DNA of 27,839 nucleotides from NCBI GenBank assembly GCA_046758705.1, contig JBHIAT010000029.1, positions 1 to 27,839 on the forward strand, read 5' to 3'. Shown one piece after another: positions 6,513 to 18,673 of the stretch (within the stretch, counting starts at the first letter, position 1; the number at the start of each line of letters is the position of its first letter). Source of the DNA: Candidatus Bipolaricaulia bacterium. Lineage in GTDB: Bacteria; Bipolaricaulota; Bipolaricaulia; JBHIAT01. The notes under the pieces are model-generated. The model worked only from the letters and a program-made list of their open reading frames with translations. It was not told the origin of the DNA and ran no database searches. A program made the position numbers and the translations under genes.

Positions 6513-8765
<2,253 letters not shown>

Positions 8766-12016: not shown

Positions 12017-13330
12017 ATGTTCATTGACGAAGTCAAGATCCACGTCAAGGCCGGGGACGGCGGCGATGGGCTGATCAGCTTCGATCGATTGCCGAGAGGT
12101 CGCGGCACGCGGAGGATAGCGAGCGGCGGGGATGGAGGATCGGGTGGGGACGTGATCTTTGAGGCAACCGGAAGTCTGAACACCCTGCTCAACTTTCGCC
12201 ATCAAATCCATTTCCGTGCGGAAAACGGGGGACCCGGCGGCTCAAAGGGGAAGACCGGCCGGGGTGGGGCGGATCGCAGGGTGATGGTGCCCGTGGGGAC
12301 GGTCGTCACCGATCCGTACACCGGAGAGGTGCTCGCTGAACTGACCGAACCGGGTGTGGCGCGTGTGATCGCCACGGGAGGCCGAGGGGGGCGGGGGAAT
12401 CGCCGATTCAAGAGTTCGAGGTCGAGGCGCCGGGCTCCGCGGATTCGGGAACGGGGGGAGGCCGGGGAGGCGCGCTGGCTCAGGTTGGAATTGAAGTTGC
12501 TCGCGGATGTCGGGATCGTTGGCCAGCCGAACGTCGGCAAGTCGAGCCTCATCGCCCGTATCTCGGCCCAACGGCCGAAGATCGCCGATTACCCGTTCAC
12601 CACCTTAGAGCCACATCTCGGCGTCGTTCGGGTGGGCGAGTTCGATGAGTTCGTGGCCGTCGATATCCCAGGGCTGATCGAAGGTGCCCATGAAGGGAAA
12701 GGGTTGGGAGATCGGTTCTTAAAACACATCGAGCGGACGAGCCTGGTGCTCCATATGATCGACGTCTCGGGGGGAGAAGGTCACGATCCGCTGGACGACT
12801 ACTTCGTGATTAACGAGGAACTCCGGGCCTTCAATCCGACACTGGCTGAGAAGCCACAGATCGTCGTCGGGAACAAGATCGACCTTCTGGAACCGGAGAT
12901 GGTCGAGGCGGCCGTCTCCCGGTTCGCGGCGACAGGGATCGAGCTCCATCCCATCTCGGTGGCGACCGGCGCCGGGATCGATCGGTTGATCCGTGACGCC
13001 TATCAGAGGGTTCGGTCGCTCCGGGCCCGGGCGCGAACGGAGCGGATGGCGGCGAAGCGCAAGGTGTATCGAATCGAGGAGGAGGAGGAGCCGGAGTCTA
13101 TGGCATCCCAGGTTCGCTTCGATGGCGAGGCGTTCGTGGTGGAAGGTGGAGAGGCGGAACGGTTGGGCCGACGGCTGTTTCTCGACACCGAGGATGCCCT
13201 GGCGTATCTCTACGAACGGTTGGAGGCACTGGGTGTGGTCGCTGAGTTACAACGCCTCGGGATCCGTCCCGGGGAGATCGTGTGCATCGGTGACTATGAG
13301 TTCGAGTTCCAGTTCCAGCGTCAGTCTTGA
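12017..13330 (+). CDS. obgE: GTPase Obg/CgtA with C-terminal OCT domain
   Basis: MFIDEV, Gly-rich Obg fold, GQPNVGKSS, ADYPFTT, DIPGLIEGA, NKID. Confidence 0.96.
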   Translation: MFIDEVKIHVKAGDGGDGLISFDRLPRGRGTRRIASGGDGGSGGDVIFEATGSLNTLLNFRHQIHFRAENGGPGGSKGKTGRGGADRRVMVPVGTVVTDPYTGEVLAELTEPGVARVIATGGRGGRGNRRFKSSRSRRRAPRIRERGEAGEARWLRLELKLLADVGIVGQPNVGKSSLIARISAQRPKIADYPFTTLEPHLGVVRVGEFDEFVAVDIPGLIEGAHEGKGLGDRFLKHIERTSLVLHMIDVSGGEGHDPLDDYFVINEELRAFNPTLAEKPQIVVGNKIDLLEPEMVEAAVSRFAATGIELHPISVATGAGIDRLIRDAYQRVRSLRARARTERMAAKRKVYRIEEEEEPESMASQVRFDGEAFVVEGGEAERLGRRLFLDTEDALAYLYERLEALGVVAELQRLGIRPGEIVCIGDYEFEFQFQRQS

Positions 13331-13390: not shown

Positions 13391-13894
13391 ATCGACCGAC
13401 AAGCACGGATCAACGAGCAGATCAGGGTGAGTGAGGTCCGAGTCATCGATGAGAAAGGAAGACAGCTGGGTGTGATGCCGGTGGTCGATGCATTAGAGAA
13501 GGCAAAGCGCCGGGGCCTCGATCTCGTCGAGGTTGCCCCCCAAGCCGACCCAGTGGTCGTCAAGATCCTCGACTACGGGAAGTACAAATACGAGCAGGAA
13601 AAGCGCAGGAAGAGGCAAAGGAAGAAGCAGAGCCGGCTCAAGGAGATGCGGTTCACCACCAAGATCAGCGATCATGACTTCAACACCAAACTGCGTCACA
13701 TCCGTCGATTCCTGGAAGATCAGCACAGGGTGCGGATCACGGTGATCTTCCGGGGACGGGAGATCGTCCATATGGATCGAGGACAGGACCTTCTGAACCG
13801 GATCGTCGAGGAGACCCAGGACATCGCCAAAGTGATTCAGAGTCCACAACGGCGCGGTCGAACCCTCCAGATGCTGCTCGTGTCGGAGAACTAA
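13391..13894 (+). CDS. infC: Translation initiation factor IF-3 with non-canonical ATC start
   Basis: The conserved RINEQIR lies upstream of the ORF-track GTG. SD TAAGGAGGG (13374-13382) is followed 8 nt later by in-frame ATC (13391). In-frame TAA at 13367 with no ATG/GTG/TTG between. LDLVEVAP and DYGKYKYE motifs. Confidence 0.95.
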   Translation: MDRQARINEQIRVSEVRVIDEKGRQLGVMPVVDALEKAKRRGLDLVEVAPQADPVVVKILDYGKYKYEQEKRRKRQRKKQSRLKEMRFTTKISDHDFNTKLRHIRRFLEDQHRVRITVIFRGREIVHMDRGQDLLNRIVEETQDIAKVIQSPQRRGRTLQMLLVSEN

Positions 13895-13941
13895 CAGCTC
13901 TAAGACCCAGTGATCCAGAGAGAGGAGAGAGGGAGATAACG

Positions 13942-14136
13942 ATGCCCAAGGCCAAAACCCATAGGGCAGTGAGCAAACGCTTGAAGACGAACAAACACGG
14001 GAAGATACGCCACAGAAAATCGCACTATCATCACAAGCTGAGGAAGAAACGCTCCCAATACAAACGGCAGGCGAGACGGTTCAAGGCGATCGCTAAGGCG
14101 GACGAGAGGATGCTTAAGCGTATGATCTCCAGTTAG
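13942..14136 (+). CDS. rpmI: 50S ribosomal protein L35
   Basis: MPKAKTHRAVSKR, highly basic, 64 aa, between infC and rplT. Confidence 0.93.
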   Translation: MPKAKTHRAVSKRLKTNKHGKIRHRKSHYHHKLRKKRSQYKRQARRFKAIAKADERMLKRMISS

Positions 14137-14168
14137 AAGCTGGGGGTATATAGAGAGGGTGAGCGGAT

Positions 14169-14519
14169 GTGCCGAGGGTCAAAGGGGGAAAGCGACGCAA
14201 GGAGCGTAGGAAGAAGATCCTGAAGCTGGCAAAGGGGTTCAAAGGCCGTCGAGGAACGGCCCATCGGATTGCTAAACAGTCGGTGATGAAGGCGCTCAGG
14301 AACGCCTACATCGATCGTCGGCGAAGGAAGCGGGAATTCAGACGGATGTGGATCATCCGCATCGGGGCGGCGAGCCGTCAGCGTGGCCTGTCTTACTCCC
14401 GATTCATCGGCGATCTGAAGGCCGAGGGGATCGAGCTCAACCGCAAGATGCTGGCGGAGATCGCCGTGCGGGACGCAAAGACGTTCGACTCGTTGGCCGA
14501 GATCGCTAAAAAGTCTTGA
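14169..14519 (+). CDS. rplT: 50S ribosomal protein L20
   Basis: [45 protein letters not shown]. Confidence 0.97.
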
Positions 14520-14580: not shown

Positions 14581-15462
14581 GTGAACTTCCAAGAGATCGT
14601 TCTCAAACTCCACGAGTTCTGGATGGACCAGGGGTGTCTGTCGCTGGTCCCCTATGATGTTGAGATCGGCGTCGGGACCTTCCCCCCGGCCACCTTCTTC
14701 GGAGCCTTGGGGGAGCGACCCTGGCGGGTCAGTTACCTGGCGCTCAGTCGGCGGCCGACCGACAGCCGCTATGGGGAGCACCCGACCCGGCTCAGGCTTC
14801 ACCACCAGTGTCAGGTGTTGCTCAAACCGCCGCCCGAGGAGGTTCAGACGCTCTACCTGGAGAGCCTGACCCACCTGGGAATTGACCTGCAACGCCATGA
14901 CTTACGGTTCGTGGGGGACGATTGGGATTCGCCGCCCCTGGACGCCTGGGGGTTGGGTTGGGAGGTTTGGCTGGACGGTATGGAGATCACCCGGTTCACT
15001 TACCTCCAGCAGGTCGGCGGGATCGCCCTCGACCCGATCTCGGTCGCACTCAATTACGGTCTCGAGCGGATCGCGACCTTCGTCCAGAAGGTCGAGAACA
15101 TCTTCGAACTGAACTGGAACGATACCTACCGTTACAAAGATCTGTTCCGGGCTCAGGAGCGAGAGTTCTCCGAGTACAACCTCGACCGGGCCGTCGTCGA
15201 CGATATATTGCGCCTGTTCCAGGTGAGCGAACGGGTGACACAGGCCAACCTGGAATGTGATCTGGTCTATCCGGCATACGACCACGTCCTCAAATGTACC
15301 CATCTGCTTGACATCTTAGCGGCACGGGGGGCGATCAGCATCACCGATCGAGAGAAGTACATCGGCCGGATCCGAAAGTTGGCTCGGGGGTGTGCAAAGC
15401 GGTATCTGGAGGAGCCGGGTGACCCGAAGGTCGCTCTCGATCCAGCCCGCCACCTAAGATGA
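14581..15462 (+). CDS. glyQ: Glycine--tRNA ligase alpha-subunit homolog with substituted active-site residues
   Basis: Colinear with GlyQ (MNFQ, SRRPTD, AWGLGWEVWLDGMEIT, YGLER), but many invariant residues are changed (see findings). Family assignment is secure; activity is not. Confidence 0.88.
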   Translation: MNFQEIVLKLHEFWMDQGCLSLVPYDVEIGVGTFPPATFFGALGERPWRVSYLALSRRPTDSRYGEHPTRLRLHHQCQVLLKPPPEEVQTLYLESLTHLGIDLQRHDLRFVGDDWDSPPLDAWGLGWEVWLDGMEITRFTYLQQVGGIALDPISVALNYGLERIATFVQKVENIFELNWNDTYRYKDLFRAQEREFSEYNLDRAVVDDILRLFQVSERVTQANLECDLVYPAYDHVLKCTHLLDILAARGAISITDREKYIGRIRKLARGCAKRYLEEPGDPKVALDPARHLR

Positions 15463-17348
15463 ACGACCCGGGCCGAGCATTGCTGGTCGAGATCGGGACG
15501 GAGGAGATCCCCTCCGGCCTGCTTGCCGGGATCGCAGCACAGCTCAGGACAGACGCGGAACGGCTGTTGAGGGAAACCGGGATCGGCTGGACGGCGATCG
15601 AGGTCCTTCATACGCCGCGCCGGCTCGTGCTCTCCGCCCAGGACGTCGCAGGTGATCGCATCCAGGAAACCCTGCCCGGGATCGTGGCTGAGCTGGTCCG
15701 GGCGATCCGCACCGAGAAGCGGATGCGCTGGGAAGCATCCGACCTGGAGTTCATCCGGCCGATCCGCTGGCTCGTCTGCCTGTTTGGGGACGAGGTCGTC
15801 CCGGTCGAGCTGGGAAGTCTGCGCGCCGGGCGGGCCACCCGCAACCGACGGTTCTGCGAACCAGAGTGGATCGAGGCTCGCGATCCGACGGATTATTTCG
15901 ATCGGTTGGGAACAGCGGTGATCCTCGACCCCAAGGCGCGTCGGGCAACTATCGAAGCAGCGCTGGAGCAGACTGCCGAGGAGATCGGGGGACGGCCCGT
16001 CCAAGATGAAGCGTTGCTCGAGGAACTCGTCGCCAGCTTCGAATATCCGTCCCCCGTCCCGGGGGAGTTTCCCGAGCATTTCTTGAGGCTGCCTCAGGAA
16101 GTGGTGATCGCCACGTTGATCCAGGAAGAGCGGTTCGTTCCGTTCGTCTCCGACCAGGGGATGAAGCCTTACTTTCTCGGATTCCGGGACGGGGAGGTCG
16201 ATGATGGGACGGTGAAGCGGGGTTATGAACAGGCCCTCCGGGCCCAGCTGGCCGACTCCCAATTCTCCTTCGCGAAGGACCGCGAGACGACCCTGGCGGA
16301 GAAGACAGAGGAACTGAAGGCGGTGATCTATCAGGAGCGGTTGGGCTCCATCTGGGACAAGGTGGGGCGGATCCGAAGGTACGCCCATGAGATCGCCCAT
16401 CGGCTTGATTTCCCAACGATGGAGGTCGATCGGGCCGCGTTCCTGTGCAAGGCCGACCTGATGACCGAGATCGTCAAGAAGTTCCCCGGGCTGAAAGGGA
16501 TGATGGGAAGCGTCTATGCCTCGCTGGATGGGGAATCGGAACGGGTCGCCAACGGGATACGGGAGCATTATCTGCCCCGGGCCGCCGGCGATCCGATCCC
16601 CCAAACCGAGATCGGGATCGCTCTCAGCCTCGCTGACAAGCTCGATACGATCGTCGGTTCGATCGTTCTCGTCGATTCCCTCAGTGGATCACGCGATCCC
16701 TTCGACCTGAACCACAAGGCGGACGGAGTTATCCGCATCGCGATCGAACGGAACCTCGACCTCGATTTCTACCGTTTGATTCGAGATCTCGAAGAACAGT
16801 TCGCCCGGTTGAGGGAAGGGCATGAGTCAGGGATCGAGATCGAGGTGATTGAGGCGTTCTTCCAGGATCGGGTCTATCAGGTCCTGGTTCAGGAGTACCG
16901 GGTCGACGACGACCTAGGAAAGGCGCTGACGGCCGCGCCGACGGGGAATTTCTTGCGGACGTTCCGGAAGGCGAAAGCACTGGAACGGTCGAAGGATCAG
17001 GAGGCGTTCAAAGCACTGGTCGCCGCCTGCTCACGGATGCGTCATGTCACCGAAGATCATGAGATCGAGGGGTATGATTCAGCGCTGTTCGAAGAGGAGG
17101 CCGAGCTGGAGCTGTGGCGTCGCTTCTTAGAGGTGAAGCGGGAGATCATCAACCTGGAGAGCAATAGGGATTACAATGCGATCCTTCAAGCCCTGACCAG
17201 GCTCAAAGAGCCGATCGATCGCTACTTCAATGCGGTGCGGGTGATGACCGATGACCGGGTGCTCCGGGAGAATCGTTTGGGGTTCCTGCTCGAGGTCGAG
17301 GCGTTGTTCTTCACGATCGGTGACCTGTCAAAGATTGTCGTCGAATGA
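15459..17348 (+). CDS. glyS: Glycine--tRNA ligase beta-subunit homolog, internally shortened
   Basis: LLVEIGTEEIP, TPRRL, MRW, FIRPIRWL, CKADL, EHYLPR, ADKLD, and an ENRL-containing anticodon-binding domain. 629 aa. ATGA overlap with glyQ. Confidence 0.88.
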   Translation: MNDPGRALLVEIGTEEIPSGLLAGIAAQLRTDAERLLRETGIGWTAIEVLHTPRRLVLSAQDVAGDRIQETLPGIVAELVRAIRTEKRMRWEASDLEFIRPIRWLVCLFGDEVVPVELGSLRAGRATRNRRFCEPEWIEARDPTDYFDRLGTAVILDPKARRATIEAALEQTAEEIGGRPVQDEALLEELVASFEYPSPVPGEFPEHFLRLPQEVVIATLIQEERFVPFVSDQGMKPYFLGFRDGEVDDGTVKRGYEQALRAQLADSQFSFAKDRETTLAEKTEELKAVIYQERLGSIWDKVGRIRRYAHEIAHRLDFPTMEVDRAAFLCKADLMTEIVKKFPGLKGMMGSVYASLDGESERVANGIREHYLPRAAGDPIPQTEIGIALSLADKLDTIVGSIVLVDSLSGSRDPFDLNHKADGVIRIAIERNLDLDFYRLIRDLEEQFARLREGHESGIEIEVIEAFFQDRVYQVLVQEYRVDDDLGKALTAAPTGNFLRTFRKAKALERSKDQEAFKALVAACSRMRHVTEDHEIEGYDSALFEEEAELELWRRFLEVKREIINLESNRDYNAILQALTRLKEPIDRYFNAVRVMTDDRVLRENRLGFLLEVEALFFTIGDLSKIVVE

Positions 17349-17360
17349 CGTGTGCCCCGG

Positions 17361-17969
17361 TTAGCGAGAGCGCGATGGGTACATCCCTATGAGTTTCTCT
17401 AACCTCTCGATGTTGCTCAATTTTCCTGTGTCTCTTAATTTTCTAGCTGATTCGGTGAAAAAAATATGGTTTTTTAAGAATTCTAGCTGAATTTTGTACC
17501 ATTCATCACCTTCATATCTTATCCCTCTCGATATTTCCCATTCTTTTCTCAATAAATCGCCTTTTTCAAGGAAATCATCCCGACCCAGATGATCCAAATC
17601 CGCATCACATAGGATTCGTTGTAAGTGGGTCTGGGGGTTTTGCGGCATTTGAGTCGCCAGTATGATCCTCGTAATGGCCTCGATGTCCTGTTGCGAGTAT
17701 CCGTTATATTGTGACAATGTCACGCTAGCAATTTTTGCGCCAATGGGTTCATTATCCTCATACTGTCTTATATATCCGATATCGTGAAACAACGCCGCCG
17801 TCAGCAGAAGCATCGTTTCATGGGATGGGATCTTTTCCAGTTGGGCGTACTGTTTAGCGCTGGTATAGACATCAATCGTATGCTGCTTATCGTGATAATG
17901 TAGGTCTTCAGGCAGTCTTTTGTCCAACCAGTCTATGACACAGTTCTTTAAAACTTCTATATCTGGCAT
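17361..17969 (-). CDS. HD-domain metal-dependent phosphohydrolase (copy 2)
   Basis: YHDKQHT, AALFHDIGY, ILCDADL motifs. AT-rich. Paralog of 18074-18673. Confidence 0.9.
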   Translation of the reverse strand: MPDIEVLKNCVIDWLDKRLPEDLHYHDKQHTIDVYTSAKQYAQLEKIPSHETMLLLTAALFHDIGYIRQYEDNEPIGAKIASVTLSQYNGYSQQDIEAITRIILATQMPQNPQTHLQRILCDADLDHLGRDDFLEKGDLLRKEWEISRGIRYEGDEWYKIQLEFLKNHIFFTESARKLRDTGKLSNIERLEKLIGMYPSRSR

Positions 17970-18577
17970 GCCCGTTCTATTATACCCTGAAATAGGCAGA
18001 AGATGCTCACAAATGTATCAACAGGTCGACAGGACGGTGGTTGGGATTGTGGGTGTGGGTAAGGAGGCGTTCATCACATCCTGATCAGTTGCTCCAATTT
18101 CTTGATGTTGATTGACTTGCCTTCATCCCTTAATTTTCTCGCTGAATTTGTGAAATACTGATGTTCTTCCAAGAACTTTAGCTGTAACTTGTTCCATTCC
18201 TCATCACTATATTCTATTCCCTTACATATTTTGTGTTCTTTTCTCAATAGAGCGCCTTTTTCAAAAAAATCATCGTGACCCAAATAATCCAAATCCGCAT
18301 CACATAGGATTCGTTGCAAGTGGATCTGGGGGTTCTGTGGCATCTGAGTCGCCAGTATCATCCCCGCAATGGTGTCGACGTCCTGCTGTGAATATCCATC
18401 GTACTGTGACAATGTCTCTCTGGCAATTTCTGCGCCAATGGGTTCATTGTTGTCATACTGTTTTACAAATCCGGTATCGTGAAACAATGCTGCGGCCAGC
18501 AGAAGCATCGTTTCATGGGATGGGATCTTTTCCAGTTGGGCGTACTGTTTAGCGCTGGTATAGACATCAATCGTATG
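17802..18577. repeat. Direct repeat between the HD paralogs: 81-nt identical block (17802-17882 = 18497-18577)
   Basis: Base-by-base comparison at offset 695. A second 30-nt identical block lies at 17592-17621 = 18287-18316. Confidence 0.9.
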
Positions 18578-18673
18578 TTGCTTATCGTGATAGTACAGGT
18601 TTTTAGGCAGTTCGTTGTCTAAAAACTCTATGACGTAGTTCTTTATGGCTTCTATATCTCCATTGGTGTTCAT
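18074..18673 (-). CDS. HD-domain metal-dependent phosphohydrolase (copy 1)
   Basis: YHDKQHT, AALFHDTGF, ILCDADL motifs. ATGA overlap with the cyclase stop codon. Confidence 0.9.
   Translation of the reverse strand: MNTNGDIEAIKNYVIEFLDNELPKNLYYHDKQHTIDVYTSAKQYAQLEKIPSHETMLLLAAALFHDTGFVKQYDNNEPIGAEIARETLSQYDGYSQQDVDTIAGMILATQMPQNPQIHLQRILCDADLDYLGHDDFFEKGALLRKEHKICKGIEYSDEEWNKLQLKFLEEHQYFTNSARKLRDEGKSINIKKLEQLIRM

Follow-up and report, generated by a model that had tools for sequence, protein, structure and literature searches.

A resident glyQS pair with altered glycine-pocket and tRNA-binding residues, and a second glycyl-tRNA synthetase gene, in a genome bin of the Bipolaricaulia

In the window, which is the whole 27,839-nucleotide stretch of DNA analysed here (contig JBHIAT010000029.1 of a Candidatus Bipolaricaulia bacterium; window coordinates are on the + strand unless marked otherwise), the glyQ gene at 14581..15462 encodes the alpha, or catalytic, subunit of an alpha2beta2-type glycyl-tRNA synthetase (GlyRS). 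The glyS gene, which follows at 15459..17348 and overlaps glyQ in an ATGA, encodes the 629-residue beta subunit. An original prediction, made from the DNA letters, held that the amino-acid pocket of this GlyQ had been rewired and proposed a repurposed paralog. The question raised by the locus is whether this pair is still the GlyRS of its host or has been relieved of that task. Judged by their sequences, both resident subunits now lack a coherent group of determinants for the recognition of glycine and the binding of tRNA, with the rest conserved. The reading that we favour, by a modest measure, is that the resident GlyRS was displaced by a second, foreign GlyRS and has entered a recurrent path on which the relic is kept by selection.

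Membership of the window protein in the GlyQ family was supported by several models. The glyQ open reading frame (ORF) is intact, begins with GTG and encodes 293 residues, and its product matched PF02091 with 392 bits (cut-off 27) over profile positions 1-276 of 278. It passed NF006827 (389.4 bits, cut-off 369) and TIGR00388 (380.2 bits, cut-off 361.45) narrowly; four canonical relatives scored 422.6-450.8 bits with NF006827, so that the window GlyQ lies 33-61 bits lower. Residues 1-277 aligned without a gap to the alpha chains of the Aquifex aeolicus (5F5W) and Thermotoga maritima (1J5W) enzymes, and the numbering of the window GlyQ is therefore that of the Aquifex protein. Thus the ORF call, the family models and the structural-chain alignment agree with the claim that the frame is intact and colinear with GlyQ. 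Because the NCBIfam models score the two proteins as equivalog GlyQ and GlyS, automatic annotation would call the window pair the housekeeping enzyme.

We aligned the window GlyQ with its 119 best matches from 5.8 billion proteins and treated columns that were at least 95% conserved as near-invariant. The window protein deviates at 12 of these 97 columns (A31V, P55L, G62S, N67H, Q138R, F142L, E156A, F201L, S240T, F243L, N244D and E256D), as compared to a mean of 1.1, a median of 1 and a maximum of 9 for the other 119 homologues, a pattern that is more than chance. Every substitution named in the original prediction was found in the alignment (A31V, H/N35P, E/Q54A, P55L, G62S, N67H, N69T, Q72R, E112G, T119P, G121D, Q138R, F142L, E156A and T158N), and its codon readings were correct (CGG at 14992, GCA at 15046 and AAT at 15052). 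Position 156 is Glu in 118 of the 119 homologues and in 18/18 canonical relatives, and position 31 is Ala in 118 of 119. Column 158 holds Thr in 113 homologues and Ala in six, and the window protein has Asn. In the DNA, the Val31 codon (GTC, for the family Ala) lies at 14671..14673, and the strand R138-F-T140-Y-L142, with Q138R (CGG), F142L (CTC) and the retained Thr140, at 14992..15006. At the start of motif 3 (15046..15054), Ala156 (GCA)-Leu-Asn158 (AAT) replaces Glu-Leu/Ile-Thr. None of the nearest GlyQ matches shares the window changes, the best non-self match being only 61% identical. Among 18 canonical relatives of the same class, none deviated at the tabulated highlighted sites, except for T158A and S240A in one family. 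In that family (f6), both changes occur throughout the nine of nine members examined (e.g., L010 and L011), and glyQS is the only GlyRS detected in its genomes. Certain other GlyQ homologues (P0027, P0036, P0037 and P0101) carry Q138R, E156G, T158A, or A31G with Q138H and F142L.

According to previous reports, the glycine amino group is held by Trp115, Gln76, Gln78, Thr33 and Glu156, described as "absolutely conserved" (PMC4938167), and the same five residues are named for the E. coli enzyme (PMC8464048). Both papers count Glu156 (E. coli Glu162) among five residues that are conserved throughout the alpha-beta GlyRSs (PMC4938167, PMC8464048). Thr140 and Thr158 exclude alanine, and Ala31, 4 A from Trp115, packs on it and helps to close the pocket (PMC4938167). 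Thr158 has been described in the literature as nearly absolutely conserved. This published residue list supports the claim that the changed residues lie on the glycine pocket, and the codons agree with the statement that a single base separates each pocket change from a consensus codon. Four of the five conserved pocket residues are kept in the window GlyQ (T33, Q76, Q78 and W115), and the fifth, E156, is Ala. In the Thr140/Thr158 pair, T140 is kept and T158 is Asn, but T158A is normal in one canonical family, and the pair is thus no strict hallmark of the enzyme. All six class II ATP/Mg residues (Aquifex R58, D61, R70, E128, E135 and R163), whose roles are known from E. coli mutants (PMC8464048), are present by alignment. 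Retention of R58, Q76, Q78, W115 and R163, as claimed, was thereby confirmed, and T33, D61, R70, E128, E135 and T140 are kept as well. The C-terminal "LGFP" motif that was said to be lost was not found as a conserved motif in any alignment; the tails differ past about residue 278, where homology ends.

Our results also revealed damage to the beta subunit, which goes beyond the alpha-subunit changes first noted. The window GlyS passed TIGR00211 (566 bits, cut-off 300), but it lacks the B2 domain. Relative to solved structures and relatives, around 57-61 residues are missing between "..TPRRLVLSAQD" and "..MRW", and alignments and translation place the junction (..SAQD-VA-GDR..) at 15642..15653. 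The missing part corresponds to E. coli beta residues 66-124, which form B2 (PMC8464048), and its loss is a clean in-frame excision. The domain is present in 18/18 canonical relatives and in 10/10 fused homologues. In E. coli, deletion of B2 abolished the enzyme-tRNA complex and the tRNA-dependent step, and glycine activation was kept (Ju et al. 2021, PMC8464048). Outside B2, eight of 74 columns conserved among 30 canonical rows are deviant (G129N, R263Q, F270S, G405V, P408L, R418N, R419H and I530V). Gln263, at 16245..16247, stands for an Arg found in 30/30 canonical rows (E. coli beta Arg326), and Asn418-His419, at 16710..16715, stands for an Arg-Arg pair found in 29/30 and 30/30 rows (E. coli beta Arg481 and Arg482). 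Arg326 contacts the ATP gamma-phosphate, and its substitution by alanine lowers glycine activation approximately 15-fold (PMC8464048); of the pair, Arg481 forms a bond with the G71 base and Arg482 touches the phosphate of U73 (PMC9908026).

The window GlyS has the B1, B3, HD and anticodon-binding domains; it also retains its HD-cavity residues and, in B1, the tRNA-facing K146, R149, W150 and R159 (E. coli numbering). A suggestion that the enzyme acts as a non-catalytic tRNA binder fits badly with a beta subunit that lacks the tRNA-elbow domain B2 and the acceptor-stem arginines. The best non-self GlyS match was 48% identical. B2 is also absent from two full-length proteins among the best 149 representatives drawn from 1.84 billion clusters. 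The first shares 88% identity with the GlyS-like protein of G006, a genome of the same phylum that is considered below. The other (P0499) belongs to a different lineage and keeps the Arg pair.

The position of the pair indicates that it is the resident gene. In the window, glyQ directly follows rplT (14169-14519), which is preceded by rpmI (13942-14136) and infC (13427-13894), all called as ORFs; the infC-rpmI-rplT block (13427..14519) is the conserved ancestral glyQS neighbourhood in the phylum. Similarly, rplT adjoins glyQ at 28/28 loci of relatives, for canonical and damaged pairs alike. Because it sits in the ancestral infC-rpmI-rplT-glyQ-glyS locus, the window glyQS is the resident gene and not a duplicate. 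This argues against a repurposed paralog that arose by duplication.

The window pair is not the only GlyRS gene in its genome bin, which comprises 3.70 Mb in 319 contigs and is rated 93.9% complete and 4.7% contaminated, a genome size roughly twice that usual for the phylum. A sole GlyRS, which the original prediction named as part of what would count against repurposing, is thus not the situation in this bin. There is a single glyQ, and no alpha2-type GlyRS was found in this 93.9%-complete bin. A second glyS-like gene is located at C136:1-1827; it encodes 608 residues, and its 5' end is cut by the contig end. Its product scored 676 bits with TIGR00211, as compared to 566 bits for the window GlyS, and none of its visible conserved columns is substituted; its 10 deviations are all gaps that stem from the truncation. 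Its 119 best homologues are for the most part alpha-beta fusions of approximately 1000 residues that share 52-65% identity with it, and those with named sources come from Anaerolineae or Chloroflexi. By its sequence, the C136 gene is thus classed as a canonical, Chloroflexota-type fused alpha-beta GlyRS. Since the homologues have around 1000 residues and only 608 are present, the remaining 395 or so, with the entire alpha domain among them, would fall beyond the contig end. Upstream of the C136 start, public contigs extend a further 275 nt (run X2) and 1310 nt (run X3). The shortest contig in the bin has 1502 nt, consistent with a length cut-off of about 1500 nt, so that a short contig with the alpha part would have been dropped. 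The three tRNA-Gly genes (CCC, GCC and UCC) are of the ordinary bacterial type, with G1-C72, C2-G71, G3-C70 and U73, and either type of enzyme could therefore serve them.

Several observations tie C136 to the rest of the bin. It ends in the same 55 bases with which a 30-kb contig, C24, begins, and 95 such contig-end overlaps, a signature of graph neighbours, occur in the bin. A phosphoketolase gene on C136 and an acetate kinase gene on C24 lie head to tail across the junction. The tetranucleotide distance and the guanine-plus-cytosine (GC) content of both contigs are ordinary, and no sign of two populations, as in a chimeric bin, was seen, GC and the first principal component of tetranucleotide composition being unimodal across the bin. 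C136 is fully present in three sequencing runs that hold the window at 0.97 or more. No RNA run was among the sequencing runs listed as holding the window. We considered a LysM module in a C136 protein as a marker of nativeness; at least 10 other contigs encode proteins with stretches 65-76% identical to the LysM part, and the marker was set aside, as we take this LysM type to be widely conserved. Separately, folE is found at C136:6557-7198, with a 44%-identical second copy at C245:1069-1614, beside two tRNA-Gly genes. A DNA fragment approximately 90% identical to the C136 folE lies at C24:1440-1584, near the C24 start, and may explain the assembly break there.

A number of results weigh against displacement, and several of them concern the origin of C136. 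Nothing close to the fused GlyRS was found in the phylum's 183 other genomes (best match, 40% identical), the C136 phosphoketolase has no match there, and the acetate kinase has one weak match. The best matches of the phosphoketolase are 73-80% identical and come, where a source is named, from Dehalococcoidia or Chloroflexota. In run X4, 28% of the window's words are present but no C136 contig was found, a weak negative and no proof of absence. The bin is rated 4.7% contaminated, as noted above, and C136 and C24 may be mis-binned; taken together, the data on both contigs are compatible either with a transferred island or with 40 kb of mis-binned DNA. As for the C136 gene itself, its alpha part was never seen. 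In addition, the window GlyQ keeps all ATP/Mg residues and four of five glycine-pocket residues, and the NCBIfam equivalog cut-offs are passed, so the window pair could still work as a GlyRS. Thr158 is Ala across a family (f6) in which glyQS is the only detected GlyRS, and not every "invariant" residue is thus essential. Similarly, loss of B2 by itself may be tolerable, given P0499. Finally, no close relative exists (best non-self matches of 61% for GlyQ and 48% for GlyS), leaving the window pair without a ratio of nonsynonymous to synonymous substitution rates (dN/dS) of its own.

It is possible on these grounds that the window pair is still the only working GlyRS, that C136 was mis-binned from a co-occurring member of the Chloroflexota, and that the odd residues are lineage-specific and compensated, for example by Asn158 or water in place of Glu156, and by the anticodon-binding domain and B1 for the tRNA. 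The single glyQ and the absence of an alpha2 GlyRS from a bin of this completeness would be expected under this explanation, as would the passed equivalog cut-offs of both subunits, the retained ATP/Mg residues together with T33, Q76, Q78, W115 and T140, and the retained K146, R149, W150, R159 and HD-cavity residues of beta. The ancestral locus and the normal overall divergence of the pair (see below) agree with it, as do the B2-less GlyS elsewhere (P0499), run X4 without C136, and the lack of a close phylum counterpart for three of three tested C136/C24 genes, two of which resemble Chloroflexota proteins. In contrast, judged by match pattern, none of the 82 other glyS-positive genomes of the phylum shows B2 loss, and 18/18 aligned canonical relatives keep B2 and the Arg pair. 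Deletion of B2 in E. coli removes the enzyme-tRNA complex, and R326A lowers activation approximately 15-fold (PMC8464048). The same lesions recur beside a second GlyRS in 10 of 11 genomes with damaged pairs, and C136 is tied to the 30-kb contig by the shared 55-mer, with ordinary composition. We consider a sole working GlyRS in the window to be unlikely, and we infer that both GlyRS genes reside in one cell.

The recurrence of the lesions was examined in 184 genomes, phylum and class holding the same 184; together with the names attached to GlyQ matches, this points to the Bipolaricaulota as the phylum. A glyS match was found in 94 of these genomes and an alpha2 GlyRS match in 90, both occurring together in only 11. 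Eleven genomes, all of family f3, have a divergent glyS-like gene whose product is 30-39% identical to, and collinear with, the B2-less window protein. Ten of them were aligned (G006, G026, G133, G153, G154, G155, G157, G158, G159 and G161; G156 was left out), and 10/10 lack B2 and both arginines of the pair. Ten of these 11 genomes carry an alpha2 GlyRS as well, and the one without a match, G161, has a completeness of only 74%. Among the other 82 glyS-positive genomes, only G134 has an alpha2 GlyRS, and its glyQS is canonical; by match pattern, B2 loss was seen in 0 of the 82, of which 81 lack an alpha2 GlyRS. The 18 aligned canonical relatives all keep B2 and the Arg pair, and the alpha invariants are kept apart from the f6 exceptions. 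Because all damaged f3 pairs lie behind rplT, like the canonical ones, they are resident genes and not extra copies.

The GlyQ-like partners of these proteins are altered further than the window GlyQ. Of 89 conserved columns, 20 are deviant in G133 and 46-53 in genus g16 (G026, G153-G159 and G161), and their NF006827 scores are 294 bits in G133 and approximately 145 bits in g16, where Arg58, Thr33 and other residues are lost. Examples of these strongly diverged genes, in the ancestral rplT-glyQ-glyS locus, are L023:1501-2304 (glyQ-like) and L046 (glyS-like). Two f3 genomes of one genus (g47), G134 (L150) and G133 (L149), both have an alpha2 GlyRS. The glyQS of G134 is still canonical, with 1/89 GlyQ and 5/74 GlyS columns deviant; in G133, B2 is lost and an insertion of repeats (NGLQS/DLQPN units) stands in place of the acceptor-stem loop. 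These two genomes look like a within-genus before-and-after pair.

A single origin of all B2-less GlyS proteins was considered and rejected. When the B2 columns were left out of the GlyS tree, G006 and G026 clustered with canonical f3 sequences and the window protein stood apart. A grouping of these three proteins as one clade was rejected by the approximately unbiased (AU) test (difference in log likelihood 30.3, p=0.0016). In GlyS, deviant columns of the window protein are common to G006 at 7/8 (p=6e-4), to G158 at 6/8 (p=0.009) and to G133 at only 2/8 (p=0.5); in GlyQ, 7/11 are common to G133 (p=0.002). These p-values assume that conserved columns are equally free to change, which is untrue, and are indicative only. 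Q138R, F142L, F243L and N244D are identical in the window and G133 GlyQ proteins, and G133 also has E156G. In G158, G159 and G154, position 156 of GlyQ is Arg (E156R).

We next consider whether the pair is simply decaying. Identity of the window GlyS to 18 canonical relatives was, per domain, 0.96-1.08 of the cross-family value among those relatives, and GlyQ was 56.8% identical to canonical relatives, as compared to a cross-family mean of 60.0% (range 52.7-72.2%). Because the overall divergence of GlyQ and GlyS is normal, the changes are site-focused and not general; the unusual feature of the window pair is the placement of the changes, not their number. Most of the replacements are conservative (A/V, F/L three times, S/T, N/D and E/D). 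Both ORFs are open (293 and 629 codons), and the ATGA coupling is kept. In genus g16, where the ORFs are intact across the genus, dN/dS of the glyQS-like pairs was 0.21-0.47 across all pairs with a defined dS, and 0.27-0.31 for both genes in the least saturated pairs (dS 0.70-0.89). The g16 relics are under purifying selection, weaker than is usual for a synthetase, though they are no longer able to be a GlyRS.

It could be argued that the resident pair was displaced and is in plain early decay, with no function left and too young for stops or frameshifts. The scatter of lesions over the amino-acid pocket, the ATP gamma-phosphate contact, the tRNA elbow and the acceptor stem is consistent with this, as are pocket changes each one base from a consensus codon and the lack of relatives against which purifying selection could be shown. 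On the other hand, decay does not readily account for intact coupled frames, for overall divergence that is not raised and an excess of changes mainly at invariant sites, for mostly conservative replacements, for a clean in-frame excision of B2, or for much older analogues in the phylum that are still open, with dN/dS of about 0.3. The original prediction had rated relaxed selection on a redundant copy as equally possible. Normal divergence, the same sites hit in independent lineages and the dN/dS of the analogues do not favour simple decay, and we regard it as quite unlikely.

Displacement followed by retention, the reading that we prefer, could have proceeded as follows. The resident pair would be the lineage's original alpha2beta2 GlyRS, in its ancestral place and with glyQ translationally coupled to glyS. 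The fused C136 GlyRS most likely now charges the three ordinary tRNA-Gly, and the resident pair would then have been freed from the constraints of glycine recognition and of binding to the tRNA acceptor and elbow. The losses in alpha are those of Glu156 (E156A), of its pocket-floor neighbours (Q138R, F142L, T158N and A31V) and of three motif-2-loop residues. In beta they comprise the tRNA-elbow domain B2, the acceptor-stem arginines (R481N and R482H, E. coli numbering) and the ATP gamma-phosphate contact (R326Q). An enzyme so altered would probably charge tRNA poorly. By appearance of its sequence, the pair may still form a folded alpha2beta2 complex that binds ATP. It would thus stand at an early stage of a path that recurs in the phylum and appears to end in "GlyQS-like" proteins, B2-less and without the Arg pair, that purifying selection maintains over long periods, presumably because they serve some purpose other than ordinary tRNA charging.

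As for what such a role might be, the original prediction suggested that an altered pocket activates a different substrate. In this case the enzyme would adenylate a non-amino or acidic small molecule by means of the kept ATP site, with Arg138 replacing the negative Glu156. The intact ATP/Mg residues and the reversed pocket charge are compatible with such an activity, and separate lineages have an Arg where the glycine pocket used to be (Q138R in the window and G133, E156R in G158, G159 and G154). The tRNA determinants would also be dispensable, as expected if tRNA were no longer the acceptor. However, the beta Arg that positions the ATP gamma-phosphate is lost as well (R326Q), and the older analogues lack the motif-2 residue Arg58 and other catalytic residues, so that the role retained there over the long term is not adenylation. 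The neighbours of the pair are translation and unrelated genes, with no candidate for a substrate, a carrier protein or a pathway among them. An acidic or non-amino substrate, the proposal of which starts solely from the charge swap, is therefore improbable.

A broader possibility, which we put forward tentatively and with less confidence than displacement itself, is that replaced glyQS genes have repeatedly been converted, and not lost, into a selected two-subunit synthetase-like protein that acts outside tRNA-Gly charging. Such proteins would have neither B2 nor the acceptor-stem arginines, would have a rebuilt pocket that often contains Arg, and would remain in the ribosomal-protein operon, the window pair being a young, independent instance that still has its ATP site. 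If this is true, the window pair is a natural intermediate that shows which determinants go first. The order of loss appears to be repeatable, with the elbow domain, the acceptor-stem arginines and the glycine-binding Glu lost first and the ATP site later. The window locus and its 11 counterparts give the impression of a replacement still under way, with a hint that a displaced enzyme acquires another use, and they bear on the open question of the patchy distribution of two GlyRS types.

We compared the window pair with known systems. It resembles canonical alpha2beta2 GlyRS (5F5W, 1J5W, 7EIV, 7YSE and 7LU4) in family, in fold by sequence and in operon arrangement, as well as in its class II motifs, ATP/Mg residues, four of five pocket residues and B1, B3, HD and anticodon-binding domains. 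In contrast to those enzymes, its alpha subunit has E156A, T158N, Q138R, F142L, A31V, P55L, G62S and N67H, its beta subunit lacks B2 and has R481N, R482H and R326Q, and it is probably not the only GlyRS gene of its genome. The engineered EcGlyRS-deltaB2 lacks the same domain of around 60 residues (PMC8464048), but the window protein is altered in its pocket and its acceptor-stem arginines as well. PoxA is a synthetase-like paralog that no longer charges tRNA. As far as its sequence and the second gene suggest, the window pair is like PoxA, HisZ and YadB in keeping a synthetase-derived fold without the determinants of aminoacylation, in the presence of a synthetase that works. Those three arose by duplication and have known functions, whereas the window pair is the original gene left after apparent displacement. 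HisZ, which is HisRS-like, and YadB are listed among synthetase-like proteins in Table 1 of a 2022 review, and no bacterial glyQS-derived member was seen among the entries consulted there (PMC9437257). In the literature searched, as far as its accessible parts go, we found no description of a glyQS-derived synthetase-like paralog or of the family of diverged glyQS-like pairs from f3. Coexistence of two GlyRS types was reported as extremely rare, in one of 542 proteomes, that of Haloactinopolyspora alba (bioRxiv 10.1101/2023.05.29.542759), and this rarity adds to the interest of the window locus and its counterparts. Haloactinopolyspora alba likewise has two GlyRS genes in one genome, but these are of the alpha2 and alpha-beta types, with no degeneration reported in the source as available; here both are of the alpha-beta type, and the resident one is altered.

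Other features of the window were recorded in passing. Upstream of infC lies an ORF for obg (12017-13330); the best matches of its product in named genomes were 45-48% identical and spread over many phyla, and thus gave no guide to taxonomy. Downstream of glyS, 17361-17969 (-) and 18074-18673 (-) are tandem paralogous ORFs of approximately 200 codons with near-identical internal segments; they lie in a low-GC stretch (0.47, as compared to ~0.59 for the window), and their products appear HD-domain-like by eye only. A 2.2-kb stretch at 6527-8717 has a 78%-identical DNA copy elsewhere in the same genome (G000), at contig C4:12888-15084. Contig C226 of this genome carries, at 1320-1505, a second rpmI (L35), whose protein is 66% identical to the window copy. 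It stands alone between universal-stress-like and cation antiporter-like genes, outside any infC-rpmI-rplT operon.

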